Below, one piece after another: positions 1 through 10,062 of a DNA stretch of 64,000 bases. The notes beneath the pieces are model-generated. The model saw only the letters and a list, made by a program, of their open reading frames with translations, made no database searches and was not told the DNA's origin. This DNA is from an uncultured Spirochaetota bacterium (GTDB lineage Bacteria > Spirochaetota > UBA4802 > UBA5550): assembly GCA_963827275.1 (NCBI GenBank), contig CAWHAA010000010.1:256001-320000 (forward strand), given 5' to 3'. Position numbers and translations under genes: made by a program. Position 1 is the first letter of the stretch. Each line of letters starts with the position of its first letter.

Positions 1-1
1 C

Positions 2-412
2 CTCCGGCTCAGGGAAAACCCTGTCGAGATATTCCAGATGAAAAAGGACCTGTACATGAACTATTCGGTCACCAGGATTGATCCCGAGCACTCGGTGAGG
101 ATAGAAGATTTGCAGAAAAAGATCCAGCCGTGCGGCCTGGCGGTAGCGATGGACGCGAACCGGGAAATGTTCTACAGCATCACCCTGCCCGACGGGAAGC
201 AGTCGGAGCCCTTCTCCAAGCACAGCGTCGTTCAGTTCGTGAAAAAACTCAACGGGGTCCTCGATTCGAAGGACTACCGGCCGTTCGTGACCGCCGTCGA
301 CCTGACACGCCTCCAGCACAAGTATTTCCGCTTCTATTCGTCATATTCCTTCTACGAGAAGATGCGCGCCGAGCTCATGCTCGAGGGCGCGCAGGCGCAG
401 GCGAATAAATAA
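2..412 (+). CDS. Hypothetical protein, probably 5'-truncated by the window edge
   Basis: ORF 38..412; the same frame is open back to position 2 (LRLRENPVEIFQ-M). No family recognised. Confidence 0.6.
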   Translation, partial: LRLRENPVEIFQMKKDLYMNYSVTRIDPEHSVRIEDLQKKIQPCGLAVAMDANREMFYSITLPDGKQSEPFSKHSVVQFVKKLNGVLDSKDYRPFVTAVDLTRLQHKYFRFYSSYSFYEKMRAELMLEGAQAQANK

Positions 413-420
413 CGCCCGCC

Positions 421-840
421 TCAACTCCCCCCCCTCGTCCCCCGCAGGGGGGCACGCGGGATCAAATCATCCATCTCTCAGCGCAATTTCATGCATGATC
501 ATGTCAACGCCCCCCTGTCCCCCGTGGGGGGCACGTGAGATCAAATCATCCATCTCTCAGCGCAATTTCATGCATGATCATGTCAACGCCCCCCTGTCCC
601 CCGTGGGGGGCACGTGACATCAAACCTTTTTTGATAACTCTCTCTTAATCGCATCAAGAACTGAATTAATCTCTTTCATGATTTCATCATTGTCAAATCG
701 TATTGTTTTTAGCCCGAAAGTTTCCATGAAATCATCGCAGTATTCATCATAGTCTGTTCTTACTTTATGTCAATCAGCCCCTTGATTCGTGCCCCCTTCG
801 GGGGACAGGGGGAAATTCATTCATGCCCCCTACGGGGGTC
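421..840. repeat. REP-like cassette 1: three forward palindromic repeats, a DUF559 remnant, and inverted repeats
   Basis: Copies of TCAAC(G/T)CCCCCCTGTCCCCCGN(A/G)GGGGGCACGNG(G/A)GATCA at ~421-464, 504-543 and 583-622. Inverted copy at 783-814, partial at 824-840. Exact 79-bp tandem duplication 460-538/539-617. Confidence 0.9.
620..769 (-). pseudogene. C-terminal remnant of a DUF559 endonuclease paralog
   Basis: Translates as HKVRTDYDEYCDDFMETFGLKTIRFDNDEIMKEINSVLDAIKRELSKKV*. By hand count it is 30/49 identical to the C-terminus of 1529..1891. No start codon. Confidence 0.85.
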
Positions 841-848
841 AAAGTGGA

Positions 849-1472
849 TTACCGGTAGTACCTCTTCTGCTCCCTCACCGTTGATTTCGGGAACCTCCCG
901 TAATGGTGCCCCGGCCATATCACCGTATCGTCCGGCAACACGAGGATTTTATGGAGGATGGAGTGCATGATCTTCTCCATCGACCCGTCACCGAGATCGG
1001 TGCGCCCCATCCCCTCGGTGAACAGGGTGTCGCCGGTGAATATGTGGCCCGGCGCGTACAGGCACACGCTCCCCTCGGAATGGCCCGGCGTATGTATTAT
1101 TTTTAGAGAGCAGCCGCCGAACGTGATGACGTCGCCCTCCTTTACGGTCATTTGCGGCGGGGGCGAGGTCTTGCCTCCCATGGTGCGGGAGAGGAACCTG
1201 CTCGTGAGGCTCCCGAGCTTGCGGACGTCGGTCTCGTGCAGGAGAAGCGGCGCACCGGTCTTTTTCATCCAGTAGTCGTTGCCCGACGTGTGGTCGAAAT
1301 GCCCGTGGGTATTGATGATATATTTTACCGTGACATTGTGCTTCTTTATGGCGCTCTCGATAAGCTGGTGGTCCCCTGCGGGATCGATGAGCACCGCCTC
1401 CCTGGTCGACTCGTCCGCCACCAGGTAGCAGAACACGGCCATCTGCGTTACAAGTATCTGTTCGATTATCAT
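849..1472 (-). CDS. MBL-fold metallo-hydrolase (glyoxalase II-like)
   Basis: THGHFDH, HTPGHS, FTGDTLF, GRTDL and PGH motifs. Confidence 0.9.
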   Translation of the reverse strand: MIIEQILVTQMAVFCYLVADESTREAVLIDPAGDHQLIESAIKKHNVTVKYIINTHGHFDHTSGNDYWMKKTGAPLLLHETDVRKLGSLTSRFLSRTMGGKTSPPPQMTVKEGDVITFGGCSLKIIHTPGHSEGSVCLYAPGHIFTGDTLFTEGMGRTDLGDGSMEKIMHSILHKILVLPDDTVIWPGHHYGRFPKSTVREQKRYYR

Positions 1473-1491
1473 ACTTCAAACCTCTTCATGG

Positions 1492-1991
1492 TCAACTCCC
1501 CCCTGTCCCCCGTAGGGGGCACGCGGGATCACGACTTTTCTAATAACTTGTGCTTGATTGCAACAAGAACTGAATCAATATTTTTCATGATTTTATCATT
1601 ATCAAATCGCATTGTTTGTATCCCGAGACTTTTCAAAAAATCATCGCGGTATTCATCGTAGTCTTTTCTTTCTTTATGGACGTTTCCATCCACCTCAATC
1701 GCCAGGAGCTTTTCATCACAATAAAAATCAAGTATATAGCGATATATCGGATGCTGGCATCTGAATTTATATCCCTCAAGCTGCTTGCTCTTCAACCGCT
1801 CCCATAATAAACGCTCACCGGGAGTTAAATTATTGCGCATATCTCTCGCCAGTTGAATAACATAGTCAGGTGTTTTAATGCCTTGATTCATATTCTTGTT
1901 ACAATCAGCATCCTGATTCGTGCCCCCTGCGGCGATCAGGGGGGAATTCAGCCCCTTGATCCGTGCCCCCTATGGGGGACAGGGGGAAATT
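1492..1991. mobile_element. REP-like cassette 2: intact DUF559 gene bracketed by inverted palindromic repeats (putative autonomous element)
   Basis: Forward repeat 1492-1531, whose GATCA end supplies the gene's TGA stop. Inverted repeats at 1914-1950 and 1957-1991. Mobility is inferred, not shown. Confidence 0.6.
1529..1891 (-). CDS. DUF559 / Vsr-like endonuclease domain protein
   Basis: ARDMRNNLTPGERLLWERLK..LEGYKFRCQHPIYRYILDFYC..KLLAIEVDGNVH..D..RD..L...G..TMRFDN is the typical DUF559 pattern. AT-rich relative to flanking genes. Confidence 0.9.
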   Translation of the reverse strand: MNQGIKTPDYVIQLARDMRNNLTPGERLLWERLKSKQLEGYKFRCQHPIYRYILDFYCDEKLLAIEVDGNVHKERKDYDEYRDDFLKSLGIQTMRFDNDKIMKNIDSVLVAIKHKLLEKS

Positions 1992-2013
1992 AAGGTGAGC
2001 GGGATACAGGCGC

Positions 2014-3033
2014 TCAGCCCACTTCATATATCATGAGCCGCTCTTCCACCCCCGGCCAGGACGGTATCCTCCGTGAGCATATCATCCGCAGCGACTCCAG
2101 CTCCCGGAAAAAATCTTCGTCCGCCGTCGATCCCATGGCGCCGACGAAAACAAGCGTCCTGCCGCCGGCCTCCCGGTAGCGGCGCAGTGCATTTACCGCC
2201 ATCGGGTCATATATCGGGGGCCAGCAGAGGAAGAGCGCCCGTTCCGGGTAGCGTCCTGCCATCGACTCGTCGCCCTCGTGGACCACGGACCAGGTGTCTT
2301 CGAACCACCGGTTTGCCTCCTGCCACTCCCACGGCCGCTCGTCGCCGGGCGGCCGGTTGTCGTAAGCGATGATGTCGGCGCCGGCGTCGCGGAGGCACAT
2401 GGCCCAGTACCCGTTCCCGGCGCCGATCTCCACCAGCGGCGAGCGGCCCGCTATCTCCTCAACCACCTGTATCGTGGGGACAGAAAACGCGTACCTGCAG
2501 ATTAACTCGGCCCTCCTCTCGTTGAGGAGGGCGCCCGGCACGCCGCCGTCCCGCCCTGCGTTCGCGGCAATGAGGGCGAGCACCTCTTCAAGGTACGGGT
2601 TCCTGATGCGCCATTCCCCGTCGGGCGGGACGTACCCCGTTATATCGGTTTCATTATCGGCTCCGGGCGTTGCGCTGCCGGTTTCATGCTGCGCAATCCC
2701 GTAGTCATCGCCGTAGCGGCCCCTGACCATCCCGGCGAGCAGACCCGGGTCCGCGACGATGGCGTCCTTTTCCTTCCTGGTCAGCCCCTGGATGAGGCGC
2801 TCGACCCGCAGCGCATCGCCCCTTCCCCCGGAAAGCCTCCAGCAGCGGGCCATCCGGACCGGCTTGAAGCTCCTGGTGTACCTGGCGCCTGCCGCGCCGC
2901 TCCGGTGCTCTTCATACCGCCGCGCAGGGTCGTCGGTCGAGCCGGTGTAATACGACCCGTTTTCGCATTCGAGCATGTACACGTACAGGTGCCGGGGATG
3001 TATGTTATCGCGGTTCTGGCTCATTGCCGGCAA
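2014..3033 (-). CDS. GIY-YIG (UPF0213-like) nuclease domain fused to a class I SAM-methyltransferase-like domain
   Basis: N-term YVYMLECENGSYYTGST..PARRYEEH..G.GARYTR; C-term LVEIGAGNGYWA..IIAYD..LFLCWPP. Confidence 0.75.
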   Translation of the reverse strand: MPAMSQNRDNIHPRHLYVYMLECENGSYYTGSTDDPARRYEEHRSGAAGARYTRSFKPVRMARCWRLSGGRGDALRVERLIQGLTRKEKDAIVADPGLLAGMVRGRYGDDYGIAQHETGSATPGADNETDITGYVPPDGEWRIRNPYLEEVLALIAANAGRDGGVPGALLNERRAELICRYAFSVPTIQVVEEIAGRSPLVEIGAGNGYWAMCLRDAGADIIAYDNRPPGDERPWEWQEANRWFEDTWSVVHEGDESMAGRYPERALFLCWPPIYDPMAVNALRRYREAGGRTLVFVGAMGSTADEDFFRELESLRMICSRRIPSWPGVEERLMIYEVG

Positions 3034-3051
3034 TCGGGACGAAACCGGGTT

Positions 3052-3915
3052 TCATTTTTTATTCTTTAGCGCATGCATGCTTTCGAAGAGCCAGCGCGGG
3101 TACGTGATCTCCGCATCCGCCGTCTTCTGCGCAAGCAGGAAGATATTGCTCCCGCGGTTCCGGCTGGTCAATAACTGTATGAGTCCCCGATAGCGCTTGA
3201 CGGAAAATCCTTCGATGTTGATCGATCCGGTCACCTTCGTATAGAGCTTCACCACGCGGAACCCCAGGCTCTCGACCAGGTCACGCAGCTCGGCCGGAGT
3301 GTACTCGCGGTTATGGCGCCCGTACGCGCCGTACCCGGAATAATGGTCATGCACGTTCCTGCCGAGGACCAGCTTGAGCACGTTCTCGTAACGGAGCACG
3401 TTGGGGGTGGTGATGATCATGTACCCTCCTTTGTCGAGGAGGCGGTTTATCTGTACAAGTGGATGGACCGGGTCGACCGTAAGGTGCTCGATGATCTCGC
3501 AGAAAAGGACCAGGTCAAAGGACTTCGGCTTGAAGGGAAACTCCTCCTTTTCGACGTTGAAGTGCCTGAAGGAAATGTCATGCCGCACGCCGTATTTCTC
3601 GCTCTGAAGGACTTCATGTGTTGCCACCTTCGCCGTATCCCCGAAATAGTTGGCCATCTCCAGGGCGCAATTGTAATATTTTTTTATAAGCAGACTCATG
3701 AAATAGGGGCTTGCCCCCAGCTCCAGGACCCTGCTTTTTTCGTTTATATTATCAGGGAAAAGCTCCAGGGTTTTCAAAAAACGGTCCAGGGAGAAATTCA
3801 GGTAATTGTTTTGTTCCTCGGGATTGAGCCCGGGCAGCCTGAAGCTCGCCAGGTACTCCATGATCGATCCAACCTTCGCTTTGTCATACTTAACGCCCAC
3901 GCAGTTTGCCTCCAT
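3052..3915 (-). CDS. Class I SAM-dependent methyltransferase
   Basis: VLELGA motif I; FDLVLFCEIIEHL; GGYMIITTPN; H.REYT..EL. Confidence 0.85.
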   Translation of the reverse strand: MEANCVGVKYDKAKVGSIMEYLASFRLPGLNPEEQNNYLNFSLDRFLKTLELFPDNINEKSRVLELGASPYFMSLLIKKYYNCALEMANYFGDTAKVATHEVLQSEKYGVRHDISFRHFNVEKEEFPFKPKSFDLVLFCEIIEHLTVDPVHPLVQINRLLDKGGYMIITTPNVLRYENVLKLVLGRNVHDHYSGYGAYGRHNREYTPAELRDLVESLGFRVVKLYTKVTGSINIEGFSVKRYRGLIQLLTSRNRGSNIFLLAQKTADAEITYPRWLFESMHALKNKK

Positions 3916-4061
3916 GGTGACGCAGGGTCACCCCGTTCTCGAATATAAATCAATACGGAATTGAAAAGGAAAATTTGCAAGTTATTTTCACACTCCCGGG
4001 GAGAGAGGAGGCCTATGTAGTAACCCAACCGGCTAATTTTTACCCGCCGGCTGAAAAACAA

Positions 4062-4090
4062 TTGACGCCATGCAAAAATAACATTATATT
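4062..4090 (+). promoter_or_regulatory. Putative sigma70 promoter
   Basis: TTGACG-N17-TATATT in an AT-rich gap upstream of the GGAGG RBS and the TTG at 4134. Confidence 0.5.
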
Positions 4091-4133
4091 TTAGTAACTA
4101 TTAAATTTATAAATTATAAGGGAGGATACAGCT

Positions 4134-4865
4134 TTGAAATACCTGGTATATATCGCAGCACTCCTGGCCCTCGCCCTTCCCCTCCAGGCAGGGCCCTTCA
4201 TGGACATGGAAGCCGGGCCGGTGTTCACGGGTAGCAACGATGCGCGGATTTCGGGCAAGTTTGGCACGAGGTTTTCACTCCCGGGGACCCTGGGAAACCG
4301 GACCTCTCCTTACATACGAGCTCGCGCCGGGTGGACAATCAAGGACCGTCACACCATCTCGTTCCTCGCCGCGCCGCTGAACGTGGAATACTACGGCACC
4401 TCATCACGGTTCCTTGTATTCAGAAACAGGTTGATCGTTCCGCATGCCCCGGTACAGGCGAATTTCAAATTCAACTCGTGGCGCCTGACCTACCGGTACG
4501 ATATCGTAAAAAATGACACTATCGAATTCGGCCTCGGCCTCACCGGGAAGATACGCGACGCCTATATACGGCTCGACAGCATGGGCGTACGGACCACCCG
4601 GCCGGACCTGGGATTTGTGCCCCTGATCAACATACGGCTGCAATGGATGTTCACGCCGGGCTTCAGCTTTTTGCTGGATGCCGACTGGCTGGCGGCCCCG
4701 CAGGGAAGGGCCGAGGACATTCTCGTGGCCCTGCAGCACCATGTCGGCGACCACGCGGTCTTCAGGGTGGGGTACCGCATCCTCGAGGGAGGGGCGGACA
4801 ACAAAAGCGTGTTCACCTTCTCGCTGTTTCACTACGCGGTCTTCGGTGCAACCATGAAGTTCTGA
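4134..4865 (+). CDS. Secreted protein, probable outer-membrane beta-barrel
   Basis: Signal peptide, alternating amphipathic strands, C-terminal Phe (GATMKF); GGAGG RBS. Confidence 0.65.
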   Translation: MKYLVYIAALLALALPLQAGPFMDMEAGPVFTGSNDARISGKFGTRFSLPGTLGNRTSPYIRARAGWTIKDRHTISFLAAPLNVEYYGTSSRFLVFRNRLIVPHAPVQANFKFNSWRLTYRYDIVKNDTIEFGLGLTGKIRDAYIRLDSMGVRTTRPDLGFVPLINIRLQWMFTPGFSFLLDADWLAAPQGRAEDILVALQHHVGDHAVFRVGYRILEGGADNKSVFTFSLFHYAVFGATMKF

Positions 4866-4893
4866 CAAAGGGGTTGGCGGCTGTGGGAGGTTG

Positions 4894-5280
4894 TCACCTG
4901 CCGCGGCCGCGGTAGCCCCCCTTGATCAGTTCCCGCGCCGCACCGTACAATTCACTCTCTTCGAGGGCCAGGGCCCTGTCGATGCACTGCAGGGCGAGCT
5001 TGTAATCGCCGTTCTTGTAGGCGTATTTCGCCATCAGGTACTGGAGACGATCGAACGCCGGGTCCATGCGCGCGGCCTTCCCGAGGGCCTGGATGGCGTC
5101 CGAAAACTTTTTCTGCCTGGCATACACCCGGGCAAGCGCGATGTAGGCATATATGAAGTGCGGGTTCAGGTCGATGGCCCTGTTCAGGTACGCGAGCGCC
5201 TTGTCGTAATTTCCGAGCTGTACCCACTCCACGCCCATGTCAAAGGAATCATCCGCCTCGATGTCGTCATAGTGCTTCAT
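4894..5280 (-). CDS. Tetratricopeptide repeat protein
   Basis: TPR pattern (LGNYDKALAYLNRAIDLNP...). Start moved to ATG 5280 (GGAG RBS) because the longer ORF runs into repeat DNA. Confidence 0.85.
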   Translation of the reverse strand: MKHYDDIEADDSFDMGVEWVQLGNYDKALAYLNRAIDLNPHFIYAYIALARVYARQKKFSDAIQALGKAARMDPAFDRLQYLMAKYAYKNGDYKLALQCIDRALALEESELYGAARELIKGGYRGRGR

Positions 5281-5320
5281 GGACTTTTCTCCCGTGCGAT
5301 ACACTGCCGCCCTTTTCGTC

Positions 5321-5678
5321 CTCCCCCCTGTCCCCCGTATCAACGCCCCCCTGACCCCCGCAGGGGGCACGAGGGATCAAATCATCCATCTCATAACGTA
5401 ATTGCTCACATCATCATATCAACGCCCCCCTGTCCCCCGCAGGGGACACGAGGGATCATGCTTATACTGATAATTCTTTCTTGATTGCATCAATAACTAA
5501 ATTAATATTATTCATGATTTCATCATTGTCAAATCGCATTGTTTGTATCCCGAGACTTTTCAAAAAATCATCGCGGTATTCATCGTAGTCTTTTCTTTCT
5601 TTATGGACGTTTCCATCCACCTCAATCGCCAGGAGCTTTTCATCACAATAAAATCAAATATATAGGGACAGGGGGGAG
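5321..5678. repeat. REP-like cassette 3: forward repeats, a DUF559 remnant, and a partial inverted repeat
   Basis: Partial copy 5321-5339, full copies 5340-5379 and 5419-5458 separated by a diverged version of the cassette-1 spacer (AATCATCCATCTC...), inverted half GGGACAGGGGGGAG at 5665-5678. Confidence 0.88.
5462..5663 (-). pseudogene. 5'-truncated DUF559 remnant
   Basis: 5529-5653 is identical to 1602-1726 of the intact gene (125 bp). The 3' end differs (DEIMNNINLVIDAIKKELSV*). There is a 1-nt deletion in an A-run and no start. Confidence 0.9.
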
Positions 5679-5782
5679 TATCCCCCATTTCATTATAAAG
5701 GTCAAATGTTTTACTCTGATTTGTATTGACCATCCGTCATCCGTATCACATACTGATCATTAAGACACAGGGAGGGTCGATC

Positions 5783-7282
5783 GTGTTACATCAATACTGG
5801 CACCCGCGCATATGCGCCGTCATCTTTTTTGTCCTCTTCATTTCCGGCTGCGGCCACAGGCCCGAAGACATTGACATTTCGTTCGGGCCTGAAAAGAAGG
5901 CCGCCGATCCCGGTACCGCGCTCATGAAGGGCATTGCACCGGAGAATATCGGATACTTGCTCTACGACCTGGAATCAGGCGAGGCGGTGCGGAGCCACAA
6001 CCGCTCCCGCGCCTTCATCCCCGCCTCCACCACGAAGATCGCCTCCACCGTGGCCGCCCTTGACGTACTGGGCCCCGATTTCCGGTTTACCACCCGCCTC
6101 TGCTACGAGGGATCCGTCAGCAAAGGGGTCCTGAAAGGCGACCTCTATCTCAAGGGCAGCGGGGACCCGCTCCTCACGGTCTCGGACCTGATGGAGATGA
6201 CGGACCGCATGAAGGACAAGGGCATACGTTCTGTCTCAGGGCGCTTCATCTATGACGACGGAGACCTGGGCGGCGCGGAGTGCATCGACAGCGGCATGGA
6301 GCCCGACATGTCGTTCAACCCCGGCGTAAGCGCGCTTTCCCTTGAATACAACGCGGTCACTGCCCAGTGGAAAAGGGACCGGCAGACTCATTCTATCGGG
6401 ATATACTTGACGCCGAGCCTGCCCATAAACAGCGCGTCGCTTTCGGTGGAAAAGCTCGGCGAGAATACCAGGTTCGCGTACCGCGATGACGGAGGCGTGG
6501 AAACCTGGCTCCTGACGCCGGACGAGGACCGGGACGGGAGCGAGCGCCTGCCGGTCAGGAAGCCGTCGCGTTTCACCGCGCACGTGTTCGCGCGCCTGTG
6601 CGCCATCCGGGGCATCACCCTCCCCCGGCCCGTCCCCGGCACGATGCCCAGGAGCGCGGACGAAATCGCCGTGCACCGCGGCCCGGCGCTCACGGAGATC
6701 GCGGACATCACCCTCACCTTCAGCGTCAACCTGGCGGCGGAGCTGATCATGCTCAGGACCGCGAAAGAGCTCACCGGGGCGGTCATGAAACCGATAGAGG
6801 CGGCAGGGCACGTGTCCCGCTACCTTTCAGGCCGCCTGGAAAATGTACCGTGGAAAAATTTTTTCATGGTAAACGGCTCCGGGCTCACGGTGCGCAACCG
6901 GGTGACCCCGGAGCAGATGACCGCCCTCCTGATCTATGCTGACGCACAGAGATACAACGGCATGAGGTACCGGACGCTCATGCCCTCTTCCGGGATCGAG
7001 TGGTCGCTCGTGAACCGGCTCAGCGATCCCCACGCGGCGATGCGCGTGTGGGCGAAGACCGGCACCATCAACTACGCCATCGCCCTGGCGGGGTACCTCT
7101 TCACGGAATCGGGGCGCACCATGGCCTTCGCGATCTTCATCAATGATATGACGGAGCGGGAGCGGTATGATGCCGACCCCGACCGCAGGAGCAGGGAATC
7201 GTCGCGGAGGGTGACCGCGTGGCTCAACAATGCGAAGAACGTCATGGACGCCATCGTCGCTTCATGGATCAGGGAGCTGTAG
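5783..7282 (+). CDS. dacB: D-alanyl-D-alanine carboxypeptidase/endopeptidase (peptidase S13, PBP4-like), probable lipoprotein
   Basis: PASTTK (SxxK), SVN and KTGT motifs; GDLYLKGSGDP; NGSGL; lipobox ISGC; GTG start with GGAGG RBS. Confidence 0.88.
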   Translation: MLHQYWHPRICAVIFFVLFISGCGHRPEDIDISFGPEKKAADPGTALMKGIAPENIGYLLYDLESGEAVRSHNRSRAFIPASTTKIASTVAALDVLGPDFRFTTRLCYEGSVSKGVLKGDLYLKGSGDPLLTVSDLMEMTDRMKDKGIRSVSGRFIYDDGDLGGAECIDSGMEPDMSFNPGVSALSLEYNAVTAQWKRDRQTHSIGIYLTPSLPINSASLSVEKLGENTRFAYRDDGGVETWLLTPDEDRDGSERLPVRKPSRFTAHVFARLCAIRGITLPRPVPGTMPRSADEIAVHRGPALTEIADITLTFSVNLAAELIMLRTAKELTGAVMKPIEAAGHVSRYLSGRLENVPWKNFFMVNGSGLTVRNRVTPEQMTALLIYADAQRYNGMRYRTLMPSSGIEWSLVNRLSDPHAAMRVWAKTGTINYAIALAGYLFTESGRTMAFAIFINDMTERERYDADPDRRSRESSRRVTAWLNNAKNVMDAIVASWIREL

Positions 7283-7313
7283 CGCAGGCCGGACCGGCCT
7301 AGTGGCTGATGCC

Positions 7314-7520
7314 TCAGCCGCCGCCGGCGCCGTGGGAGCATCGGGAGGCGGAAGCGCACCCGGGGGCCGTACCGGAGGATATGGATGAAAACGAGGAGAT
7401 GAGCTTCCTGGTCTTCGTGGAGCCGCACTGCTGGCACGTGACCTGCTGATCGTCCCCCATGCGGCGTATCTCGGAAAATTTCCCGCCGCACTCGTCGCAT
7501 TTGAATTCATATATAGGCAT
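7314..7520 (-). CDS. FmdB-family zinc ribbon protein
   Basis: MPIYEFKCDECG..F...CQQCGS..TRKLIS. Confidence 0.88.
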   Translation of the reverse strand: MPIYEFKCDECGGKFSEIRRMGDDQQVTCQQCGSTKTRKLISSFSSISSGTAPGCASASRCSHGAGGG

Positions 7521-7639
7521 TGAGTGACCTCAATTATTAAGTTATATCTAAAGTACTGAAACCTCTATAAAATGTCAAGGCCATGTGGGAAATCTTTTAT
7601 CAACTTTCCCCTGTTCCCAAAACCATGAGCATGATCACA

Positions 7640-7806
7640 TCAGCTCCCCCCTGTCCCCCGGAGGGGGCACGTGAGATCAAACTTTTTCTAAAAACTCTCT
7701 CTTGCCAGTTTAACAATAAAGTCAGATGTTTTAATGCCTTTGTACATGTGCGCCTGCCATCAGTTCCTCTGACTCGTGCCCCCTCCCGGGGCCAGGGGGG
7801 AATTCA
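7640..7806. mobile_element. REP-like cassette 4: MITE-like, internally deleted DUF559 element
   Basis: Forward repeat 7640-7679, inverted repeat 7770-7806. Between them (minus strand, 7677-7747) a DUF559 N-terminus MYKGIKTSDFIVKLARE is joined out of frame to a C-terminus KREFLEKV*. Confidence 0.75.
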
Positions 7807-7914
7807 ACTCATTGGCCCGCGCCCACTCCGATGTCCTGATGGCATGTTAGCAGAGGGTCAGAGCAAAGTCAGACCGATAGTTATCGGTACTATTGCGGAC
7901 GTGATGGCAGGTGC

Positions 7915-10062
7915 TTATTTCTTAAGCACCACCAGCGCGTCCACCGCGACCGGCTCGGCCCCCTCTATTATGATCGGGTTGATGTCGATCTCCGCCACCC
8001 CGGGATGGGCGAGCGGCACGAGGCTCAGCCGGTGGAGGGCCCGCGCCAGCGAGCTGACATTGACCGCCGGCATCCCCCGGAACGGGCCCAGGAGCGCGCG
8101 CGCGCGTATATCGAACAGCATCTCCGCCGCATCGTCCTCGCTGATAGGCGCCGGCCTGAAGACCGCGTCACCCAGGGCCTCGGTGAAGATGCCCCCCAGG
8201 CCGAACATCACCGACGGCACGAACCCGGGGGCGCGCACCAGGCCGGCGACGAACTCCCGGTCTCCCCTGACCATGCGGTAGGCGATGACCGGGACGTTCC
8301 TCCCGGCAGCCTCCTGTATCTTGCGGAACGATGCGACCGCCTCGTCCTTCGATTTCAGGTTGAGATAGATGAGCCCCTTCCCGGTCTTGTGGAGGATATC
8401 TCCCGCGCTCGCCTTCATGACGAGGGGAAAGCCGGCCTTTTCCGCTGCGGCGGCCGCTTCGTCTTCCGTATTCGCGACGATCTCGCGGGTGACCGGGACC
8501 CCCCACGCGTCCAGGAAGAGCTTCGAGCCATGCTCGTCCAGGTTCGCCTCTCCCCTTGCGCGGCACTCTTCCAGCAGGCGCGCCGCTTCACCCGGCGCCG
8601 TGACCGGCGCGGGCTTCGCCCAGGGCGCGCGCTCCCGCACCTCCCTGTGGCGCAGCATCATCAGCATGCCGCCGGCGGCCTTCTCCGGAGAATCGAATAC
8701 CGGCACGCCGTGGTCGTGGTAGGACGTGGTATAATTGTCTTCCCTGTCAAAAAAGCTCGATATGGAAACCGGCTTGTTATACACGGGAATGTAATCCGCG
8801 GCGGTGGATGATTTGTCATTGAAGCCTGCGATCAGCCCCTCGAGGGAGACGTCCTTCATCACCGCGCTGAAATGTGGAAAGACGGCCTTTATCCAGCCGG
8901 TCCCCATGACACCGTGTATCACAAGCCCGTCAACCTCCCCGCTTTTCAATATGATCTCGGGTATTTTATTCGCAAGGTTCTCGATCTCCATGCTGAAGGT
9001 CATGTCGATCGGGTTCCCGCAGGGGGCGTGGGGCGGCACGAGGGGCCGCACCAGCTCCCGGACCTCCTTTGAAAACTCCGGCACCTCGAGCCCCCCCTTC
9101 TCAAGGGTGTTGGCGATCGCGGAGCCCGGGCCGCCCGAATTGGTGAGGATGCCGATCCGCTTCCCGTTCAACCGGGGCTGGTTGGCGAGCATGTTCCCGT
9201 AGTGGTACAGGTCCTCGATGCTGTGCACCCTGATGATGCCCGCCTGGCGGAACAGGCCGTCGTAGAGATGGTCCGGCGCGGCCATGGAGCCGGTATGGCT
9301 CAGGCTCGACCGGGCGCCGGCGCTTGAGCCGCCCACGTACTGGGCCAGCACCGGCTTGCGCGGCGTGATGGCCCTCGCGACATCGATGAAGCGCGGAATG
9401 TCGCTGATCCCCTCGATGTAGAGCGCTATGGCCTTCGTGTGCTCGTCCTCACCCAGGTACTCGAGCGCGTCTATGATGTTGATGTTCGCGCTGTTGCCCA
9501 CGCTGATCGCCTTGCTGAAGCGGATCCCGTTCTGTACGAGATAGGGGATCGACTGCGTGACATAGGTGCCGCTCTGCGACGCGAACCCCAGCGAACCGGG
9601 CGCGATCGTATAAGGCATGACCGTGGTATTCAGCGCTATCTGGCTGTTGATGATCCCCATGCAGTTGGGCCCGAGAAAACGGATACCGTACCGGTCCGAC
9701 AGCTCGATCAGGCGCTCCTGCATCCGCCGCCCTTCATCGTTCATCTCGCCGAAGCCGGCGGTTATGATGATGGCGCTCTTCGTCCCCTTCCTGCCGAATT
9801 CTTCGATGATCCTGACGACCTCGACGGAGGGGACGACGATAAAAGCGAGGTCCGGAACGTCCGGTATATCCGCGATCGAACGGTATGCAGTGAGGCCGAG
9901 CACCGTTTCCTGCAGCGGGTGGACAGGATAGATTTTTCCTTTATACCCGTCGTTGATAATGCTCAGGGCGTGCATGGTGCCCATCTTTAAAATATTGTTC
10001 CCGGCCCCGACTGTGGCTATCGACCCGGGGTTCATCAGGCGGTGAAGGGGATTTTCGCTCAT
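7915..10062 (-). CDS. ADP-forming acyl-CoA synthetase (acetate-CoA ligase family), fused alpha+beta
   Basis: CoA-binding domain, GPNCMG, SQSG, SHTGS phospho-His, NPID; C-terminal ATP-grasp (HKT, EIDINP). Confidence 0.9.
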   Translation of the reverse strand: MSENPLHRLMNPGSIATVGAGNNILKMGTMHALSIINDGYKGKIYPVHPLQETVLGLTAYRSIADIPDVPDLAFIVVPSVEVVRIIEEFGRKGTKSAIIITAGFGEMNDEGRRMQERLIELSDRYGIRFLGPNCMGIINSQIALNTTVMPYTIAPGSLGFASQSGTYVTQSIPYLVQNGIRFSKAISVGNSANINIIDALEYLGEDEHTKAIALYIEGISDIPRFIDVARAITPRKPVLAQYVGGSSAGARSSLSHTGSMAAPDHLYDGLFRQAGIIRVHSIEDLYHYGNMLANQPRLNGKRIGILTNSGGPGSAIANTLEKGGLEVPEFSKEVRELVRPLVPPHAPCGNPIDMTFSMEIENLANKIPEIILKSGEVDGLVIHGVMGTGWIKAVFPHFSAVMKDVSLEGLIAGFNDKSSTAADYIPVYNKPVSISSFFDREDNYTTSYHDHGVPVFDSPEKAAGGMLMMLRHREVRERAPWAKPAPVTAPGEAARLLEECRARGEANLDEHGSKLFLDAWGVPVTREIVANTEDEAAAAAEKAGFPLVMKASAGDILHKTGKGLIYLNLKSKDEAVASFRKIQEAAGRNVPVIAYRMVRGDREFVAGLVRAPGFVPSVMFGLGGIFTEALGDAVFRPAPISEDDAAEMLFDIRARALLGPFRGMPAVNVSSLARALHRLSLVPLAHPGVAEIDINPIIIEGAEPVAVDALVVLKK

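Follow-up and report, generated by a model that had tools for sequence, protein, structure and literature searches.

The stretch of DNA analyzed here (the window; 64 kb, positions 256,001 to 320,000 of the forward strand of contig CAWHAA010000010.1, assembly GCA_963827275.1) comes from an uncultured Spirochaetota bacterium. Between its positions 421 and 7806, four intergenic cassettes combine a short structured repeat with a gene, or with pieces of a gene, for a protein of the DUF559 nuclease family. The locus raises the question of whether this gene and these repeats belong together and, if so, what the encoded protein does to the repeats. A first-pass annotation, made from the sequence alone, had proposed a mobile system resembling REPINs, the doublets formed by repetitive extragenic palindromes (REP), or miniature inverted-repeat transposable elements (MITEs), with DUF559 as the cognate enzyme. 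We found that the gene and the repeats form one unit, which is inherited, lost, and copied together and which is present or absent at the same site both between species and between strains. This 0.5-kb unit behaves as selfish, evolutionarily mobile DNA that decays into MITE-like forms and clusters locally, most copies having decayed by stop codons or by internal deletion with both ends kept. Transposases of the REP-associated tyrosine transposase (RAYT) type are not associated with it. We lean toward the view that each of the four cassettes is a copy of a selfish DNA element of very small size, consisting of a Vsr-fold nuclease gene capped by inverted three-block repeats, and that the nuclease probably propagates this element and its gutted, MITE-like derivatives.

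Four cassettes with one architecture

The four cassettes share one build and one orientation, as the first-pass annotation had described and as the sequence, a repeat finder, and a pattern search bear out. In each, one to three forward (plus-strand) copies of a repeat core are followed by minus-strand DUF559 sequence and then by inverted (minus-strand) cores. The division into one intact cassette and three deletion derivatives also stands, since the gene at 1529-1891 is the only intact one among the four. The features discussed below are as follows (lengths in nucleotides [nt]).

421..848, minus strand: cassette 1, a deletion derivative
430-456 (degenerate), 511-535, and 590-614: three plus cores of cassette 1, with a 79-nt period
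620-769, minus strand: DUF559 fragment of cassette 1, residues 72-119
788-812 and 824-840: minus core and partial core of cassette 1
1492..1991, minus strand: cassette 2, intact, with a stop-side repeat unit, the DUF559 gene, and two start-side repeat units
1499..1523, plus strand: three-block core on the stop side of cassette 2
1529..1891, minus strand: DUF559 gene P0001, 120 amino acids, the sole unbroken copy of nine in the genome
1919..1986, minus strand: two tandem inverted cores on the start side of cassette 2 (1919-1943 and 1962-1986), with a period of 43 nt
5321..5680, minus strand: cassette 3, a deletion derivative
5324-5339, 5347-5371, and 5426-5450: half core and two plus cores of cassette 3
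5340..5671, no strand assigned: segment of 332 nt present or absent between strains, from contigs of two metagenomes
5462-5674, minus strand: DUF559 fragment of cassette 3, residues 48-116, DNA 92% identical to cassette 2
5666-5677: truncated inverted core of cassette 3
7640..7806, minus strand: cassette 4, a miniature derivative with a plus core (7647-7671), a minus core (7775-7799), and an interior of ~100 nt built of the first and last DUF559 codons

The junction between gene and repeat is tight. In cassette 2, the TGA stop codon (1529-1531) lies within the ATCA that closes the stop-side repeat unit, and the same overlap is found in cassettes 1 and 4, matching the three cassettes for which the first-pass annotation had reported it. 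Cassette 3 has the same in-frame TGA, with a TAA two codons ahead of it. Cassette 4 retains ~17 N-terminal codons and a few C-terminal codons of DUF559. Scanning of 55 open reading frames of the window gave no match to transposase or integrase families, in agreement with the annotation, which had noticed no transposase there.

A three-block repeat dispersed through the genome

The repeat had been taken for a plain REP-like palindrome. That description does not hold, since the motif is C5-TGT-C5-GNN-G5-CACG, with three blocks, as in the BoxC/PIT/triplex class. The 25-nt core, CCCCCTGTCCCCCGNNGGGGGCACG, has 10 matches in the window (≤3 mismatches), all at 511-7799, and none is expected (100 shuffles). 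Reading of the sequence adds the core at 430-456, which is one copy with an inserted base, and the three partial cores at 824-840, 5324-5339, and 5666-5677, which together account for the 11 full and three partial copies previously counted. The pattern search finds no further core in the other 56 kb of the window, as had also been noted.

In the whole assembly (G000; 4.13 Mb in 11 contigs), 81 cores (≤4 mismatches) occupy 46 loci on 9 of the 11 contigs, whereas the pattern read backwards, used as a control, has no match. Convergent pairs make up 19 of the 46 loci. Plain C5-N3-G5 hairpins occur at 98 genomic sites, versus ~12 per strand expected from composition, and 76 of the 98 have a further C5 block 2 to 4 nt away, indicating that this additional block is part of the repeat itself. 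The dinucleotide of the loop is freely variable, whereas the blocks stay constant, with a length of 5 nt here, 6 nt in some copies, and 6 nt in the variants found in relatives. Both ends of a cassette carry the same 25-nt core in inverted orientation, each with a linker of its own, and either end can be tandemly multiplied with a period of 43 to 79 nt. The local spread proposed in the first-pass annotation is supported. Neighboring loci are clustered, with 10 gaps of <5 kb versus a simulated mean of 2.5 (0 of 5,000 simulations reached 10), but the repeat is not local, being distributed genome-wide. A scan of positions 1-9000 against Rfam (E ≤ 1) returned a chance-level match to Prion_pknot only; thus, the repeat belongs to no curated RNA family.

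Two features of individual cores were also observed. Throughout G000, 13 of the 14 cores with C at position 6 have G23, and T6 goes with A23; this pattern reflects either a compensatory pair that lengthens the stem past a bulge or a single founder subfamily. In addition, a piece of 24 to 27 nt starting with TTCGACA lies within the loop of otherwise normal cores at two places in G000 (C5:441309 and C10:468844) and in the upstream region of locus L008, providing a second case of DNA inserted in a core loop.

The repeat travels with DUF559

P0001, the product of the intact gene, matches Pfam family PF04480 with 117.4 bits (cut-off, 20.6; E value, 3.6e-34) over 105 of 109 profile positions. It also matches NCBIfam PRK09767 with 80.9 bits, under the equivalog cut-off of 218, and PDB entry 3HRL ("endonuclease-like protein") with an E value of 5e-19 over residues 20-116. 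Residues R19, E26, F43, Q46, I53, D55, F56, E66, G69, H72, D79, R82, and R95, all kept in P0001, are 100% conserved in 68 aligned members, and D68 occupies a position that is 98% conserved in the same sequences. We know of no established role for DUF559, which is a very common nuclease-fold domain that includes E. coli YcjD. The family table of a classification of PD-(D/E)XK nucleases places Vsr, DUF559, and a group I intron homing endonuclease in one group (PMC3424549), and a Caulobacter DUF559-domain protein was proposed in 2026 to act in very-short-patch (Vsr-like) repair (PMC12907096).

All nine DUF559 copies of the genome lie within ~50 nt of a core. One is intact, three are full-length with one in-frame stop each, and five are truncated; two more stubs of 17 to 18 codons were also seen. 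Traces of the gene at the remaining repeats were sought by scoring the 45 nt behind each core against the start- and stop-side junctions of near-full DUF559 copies, with the 99th percentile of random genomic 45-mers as the threshold. By this test, DUF559-type start or stop junctions persist at 21 of the 46 repeat loci, including 14 of the 19 convergent pairs.

The same association was observed in relatives, where 10 of the 11 best DUF559 loci have the same build as the window cassettes. The repeat changes along with the protein, from C5-TGT/TGA-C5 within the genus to C6-AAA-C6-N4-G6 next to proteins that are 57 to 59% identical, with further variants beyond. At 20 further loci, each DUF559 lineage within a genome goes with a three-block variant of its own, a pairing that is found again in other genomes; the highest control score is exceeded by 10 of these 20 loci, and the motif is visible with lower scores at another four. 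Enrichment of the repeat beside DUF559, which the first-pass annotation had put forward for testing in the whole genome and in relatives, was thus found for all of the copies in G000 and, in the form of correspondingly diverged repeats, for diverged genes.

The core itself (≤2 mismatches) is patchily distributed, being present in 17 of 41 related genomes, whereas the reversed control pattern has no match. Within the genus, a genome has between 0 and 72 copies, and G020, from a second genus, has 173; G028, from another family, has 50 copies of a variant. G020 contains ~85 copies of miniature elements of ~195 bp in which DUF559 codons 1-22 and decayed C-terminal codons lie between two cores. Since these miniatures keep both gene ends, they are internal-deletion derivatives that multiplied.

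Presence and absence of the unit between species and strains

The 9-kb region is syntenic across the genus, which allows orthologous intergenic sites to be compared. Site 1, that of cassette 1, is long here (436 nt) and in G009 (546 nt, including an intact gene) but short in G012 (13 nt), G013 (27 nt), and G014 (94 nt). Site 2 measures 541 nt here versus 34 nt in G013, and site 4 measures 394 nt here versus 90 nt in G016. The flanks of the orthologous empty sites are 65 to 83% identical, too diverged to fix the element ends to the base.

Closer comparison was provided by 20 public sequencing runs from 12 studies, each covering part of the stretch; no RNA run was listed among them. In contigs of runs X4 and X5, which belong to two studies, position 5339 is joined directly to position 5672; a 138-letter contig record consists of 53, 55, and 30 letters, with zero letters between the two positions. 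In X4, which stems from a bioreactor population, contig depth is 18.5 at the joint and 16.5 at the filled left junction, versus 34 to 37 in the flanks. The empty allele of site 3 is an exact solo core, C6-TGT-C5-GTA-G5, and at this one junction resolved to the base, the cassette sits inside a solo repeat, between the hairpin loop and the G block. There is no direct repeat of 1 to 8 nt at 5339/5672 that would indicate a target duplication or microhomology, and this seamless junction argues against slippage and against DDE-type insertion. Polymorphism at orthologous sites, which the first-pass annotation had proposed to look for, was thus observed between species and between strains. Of the two signatures it had named, empty alleles were found, and no target duplication was present at the resolved junction.

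Sequence identities point to copying that is more recent than the split of the species. Cassette 2, cassette 3, and the gene at site 1 of G009 are 89 to 92% identical in DNA, whereas the flanking genes of the two species are 75 to 83% identical; cassette 1 and the G009 copy, which occupy orthologous sites, are only 80% identical. Since these copies are more alike between species than the flanking genes, cassettes were copied after speciation.

Other rearranged contigs were set aside. At site 1, a contig of run X5 swaps 412-848 for 29 other letters, with 26 letters on the far side, which is too weak to count. In runs X1 and X4, 7521-7927 is replaced by 78 letters at site 4, a cassette-free form that is not a clean indel. 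The joints 812>1916, 1531>5423, 7704>1914, and similar ones are consistent with paralogous cassettes at other genomic loci and were disregarded. Separately, a contig of run X1 skips 93 nt at 416-510, with 10 other letters between; thus, the number of tandem stop-side units in cassette 1 varies between strains.

DUF559 genes of other phyla and the BoxC/TM repeats of E. coli

Beyond the spirochetes, 80 DUF559 loci were gathered from Betaproteobacteria, Alphaproteobacteria, Bacteroidota, Planctomycetota, Acidobacteriota, Verrucomicrobiota, candidate phyla, and others. Both flanks were present in 69 of these, and for each of them the upstream 250 nt were aligned to the reverse complement of the downstream 250 nt, with reversed, uncomplemented sequence as the control. 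Flanking inverted repeats scored above the highest control at 57 of the 69 loci (median score of 62 versus 20). Nearly all of these repeats are three-block repeats, and many fit the E. coli TMECO consensus, CCCTCNCCC N3-6 GGGNGAGGG N3 GGGNGAGGG (Holder et al., 2015, PMC4666352).

According to that study, BoxC/PIT/triplex-motif (TM) repeats occur in E. coli and in more than 260 other bacteria, are linked to local genomic instability, revealed no function of their flanking genes, and have no known origin, function, or partner protein (PMC4666352). The main text contains no mention of ycjD or of an endonuclease and names no partner protein (PMC4666352). In E. coli K-12, TMECO no. 9 lies ~170 nt downstream of ycjD, the single DUF559 gene, and a partial second copy of the 3′ end of ycjD is located between the two (locus L019, NC_000913 1351040-1351410). 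The stop codon of ycjD itself overlaps a partial block motif, and the whole arrangement resembles remnants of cassette ends. Of the 23 TMECOs in E. coli, only one is adjacent to ycjD. A literature search, in which subscription journals were not covered, found no paper linking DUF559 to these repeats.

The window repeat resembles the BoxC/PIT/TM class in its succession of three blocks with short loops between them (pyrimidine, pyrimidine, purine, or the complement), in its intergenic location, often in inverted pairs, and in the variation of loci between strains. It differs in its blocks, which are homopolymer runs of 5 to 6 nt, at or below the 6-nt minimum of the 6- to 15-nt block length set as a search rule by Holder et al. 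(PMC4666352), and in not fitting the CCCTCNCCC consensus. The window repeat thus has the architecture of BoxC/PIT/TM repeats but not their consensus, and its blocks are at the lower limit of their length or shorter. DUF559 is likely to be the missing partner enzyme of the BoxC/"triplex-motif" repeats.

Proposed mechanism and alternative explanations

We infer that DUF559 is the enzyme that moves the unit. In this view, the repeat, perhaps extruded as a hairpin or folded as three strands, would be recognized by DUF559 and cleaved at the loop or close to it. The break could then be repaired by copying from another cassette with the same repeat ends, in a homing-like gene conversion, or, alternatively, the cut unit could be rejoined elsewhere. 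By either route, solo repeats would be the targets, the repeat ends would provide the homology, and gene-less derivatives would be moved in trans. As a broader and more tentative proposal, for which we would put the chances somewhat below even, DUF559 and the BoxC/PIT/TM three-block repeats may form a pan-bacterial class of minimal selfish elements, in which the nuclease cuts the repeat at the hairpin loop and is copied with its caps into other repeats.

Several observations weigh against a nuclease-propagated cassette. The joint at site 3 is known from contigs assembled from 31-mers rather than from raw reads, depths near repeats being rough; it was not seen in runs X7 and X8, and X1, X7, and X8 show the filled form. 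It is also the one insertion junction resolved to the base, and the segment inserted there is an already truncated cassette. The split 25-nt core offers very short homology for RecA-type homing. Single-strand folding of four single units, in a hairpin-only model, is no better than that of shuffled sequences (z, −1.45 to +0.32). The literature that we found reports no DUF559 activity on these repeats. Finally, 25 of the 46 repeat loci, mostly solo cores, have no DUF559-derived sequence at the junction threshold, and no cognate DUF559 (E ≤ 1e-5) was detected in the repeat-rich genomes G001 (72 cores), G011 (55 cores), and G004 (28 cores). The G020 assembly, 98% complete, yielded no intact cognate gene, and the DUF559 sequence that matches best there has only 57% identity and lies between copies of a different repeat. 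Repeats thus persist, and perhaps multiply, in genomes whose assemblies show no intact cognate gene. The interpretation made in the first-pass annotation is supported overall, but it had not noted that about half of the loci and several repeat-rich relatives are without a recognizable cognate gene.

The same observations lend some weight to a different relationship, in which DUF559 is a free-standing homing endonuclease gene that homes into pre-existing dispersed repeats, these having spread by another route and serving as landing sites. At site 3, the cassette splits what is a complete solo core in the empty allele, ~20 solo cores and five convergent pairs bear no trace of DUF559, several genomes have repeats but no cognate gene, and a homing endonuclease belongs to the same structural group in the table of PMC3424549. 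We nevertheless regard this explanation as unlikely. Most cassettes are bounded by complete cores rather than by half cores, the start- and stop-side units have their own conserved linkers that travel with the gene, and repeat variants codiverge with DUF559 lineages. The miniatures present at ~85 copies per genome hold gene ends, indicating that the repeat-plus-gene-end unit is what was copied.

Less probable still is a host function, in which DUF559 would be a repair or caretaker nuclease for the non-B DNA of the repeats, or a Vsr-like mismatch enzyme, the link between gene and repeat being regulatory and the polymorphism resulting from repeat-induced instability. The local genomic instability tied to TM repeats and the lack of a partner function, as reported in the main text of PMC4666352, would suit such a role, as would the proposal made for the Caulobacter protein (PMC12907096). 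A caretaker would not be expected to be broken in eight of nine genome copies or to occur as multiple paralogous copies at unrelated sites. Slippage fits poorly with an empty allele that is an exact core, without even a 1-nt direct repeat at the junctions, and repeat-induced instability fits poorly with copies that are more alike between species than the flanking genes.

The least probable of the alternatives, in our judgment, is that the repeats are of the REP/REPIN type and are moved in trans by a Y1 (RAYT or IS200-like) HUH transposase, with DUF559 as a trapped passenger. G000 does contain six Y1_Tnp genes, the seamless resolved junction lacks a target duplication, as in single-strand HUH transposition, and inverted doublets resemble REPINs as described in PMC3116915. 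The arrangement named as contrary evidence in the first-pass annotation, clustering of the repeats around a RAYT elsewhere, was not observed, as neither the core nor any C/C/G three-block motif was found within 1.5 kb of any of 36 Y1_Tnp loci in five genomes (6 in G000 and 30 in G001, G011, G015, and G020). Conversely, G028, with 50 cores and eight DUF559 matches, has no Y1_Tnp match. A different repeat, GGGTCAGAG, is close to five of the six Y1 genes of G000, and this 9-mer has 179 genomic copies versus 31.5 expected, indicating that the Y1 enzymes have a repeat of their own. A passenger role also fails to explain why 57 of 69 cross-phylum DUF559 genes lie between such repeats. In the window, GGGTCAGAG is found at 7855-7863, ~50 nt from cassette 4, where it belongs to a separate dispersed repeat.

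Comparison with known mobile systems

A functional parallel is offered by the REP/REPIN-RAYT systems (Bertels and Rainey, 2011, PMC3116915). In those systems, as described there, and in the cassettes alike, the repeats are short, structured, and extragenic, inverted doublets are likely to be what replicates, one small gene lies between repeats of its own, gene-less copies are numerous, and population sequencing uncovers excision-type variants. In contrast, the gene here encodes a Vsr-fold PD-(D/E)XK-type nuclease rather than a Y1 HUH transposase, a third block is present in the repeat, Y1 genes are not beside it, and the miniatures carry both gene ends and hence arose by internal deletion. The cassette system works like REPIN/RAYT systems yet lacks the RAYT by which that family is defined.

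Vsr-like homing endonucleases (I-Bth0305I, PDB 3R3P) belong to the same structural group according to the table of PMC3424549. As for homing endonucleases, a selfish gene is present or absent at a defined site, and the insertion, at the one resolved junction, apparently splits the presumed recognition site. Unlike them, the cassette lacks an intron or intein, is bounded by inverted repeats of its own, is found at dozens of unrelated intergenic positions, and gives rise to MITE-like derivatives. MITEs and their autonomous parents, for their part, resemble the cassettes in having terminal inverted repeats, in producing internally deleted derivatives with the same two ends as the gene-bearing parent, and in bursts in some genomes (~85 copies in G020). 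The cassettes differ from them in lacking a DDE transposase, in showing no target-site duplication at the junction that was resolved, and in the size of the parent, which is only ~0.5 kb.

If the broader proposal of a pan-bacterial class is correct, it would represent a mode of mobility that uses no transposase, intron, or intein, and it would explain the origin of orphan repeats and the genome instability reported around them. If gene and repeat belong together, they would add a nuclease-driven counterpart to REPIN/RAYT systems and homing endonuclease genes, what has been seen as "instability" near triplex motifs would be the turnover of elements, and both puzzles, the role of DUF559 and that of the BoxC/TM repeats, would become open to simple assays. 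These two long-standing orphans are thus given a concrete, testable connection. The window is a good test case, since an intact gene lies next to three derivatives with deletions of graded extent, close relatives have empty sites, and both a filled and an empty allele occur in a natural population.

Neighboring genes and other observations

The neighbors of the cassettes in the window are ordinary genes, encoding a metallo-β-lactamase (MBL)-fold hydrolase, a GIY-YIG protein, a methyltransferase, a tetratricopeptide repeat (TPR) protein, a D-Ala-D-Ala carboxypeptidase, an FmdB-type zinc ribbon protein, and an ADP-forming acyl coenzyme A (acyl-CoA) synthetase. At the stop-side outer end of the cassettes (1484-1497 in the window, the other cassettes being alike), the outward strand reads TTGACC or TTGACA, a −35-like hexamer facing the neighboring gene. 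A promoter and terminator scan of 1400-2100 gave weak consensus matches only, the −35-like TTGACC at the cassette end overlaps the start codon of the neighbor, and these matches were not used.

Orthologous sites in relatives hold further variants. In G009, the site orthologous to 1473-2013 (L021) contains a DUF559 cassette that keeps its start-side end and has a half core at the other end, its middle being swapped for ~700 nt of AT-rich DNA resembling two small genes. The site orthologous to 7521-7914 is occupied in G010 (L026) and in G001 (L028) by other repeat families, with CCCTCTCC/GGAGAGGG-type blocks; thus, this intergenic site collects different structured repeats in different species.

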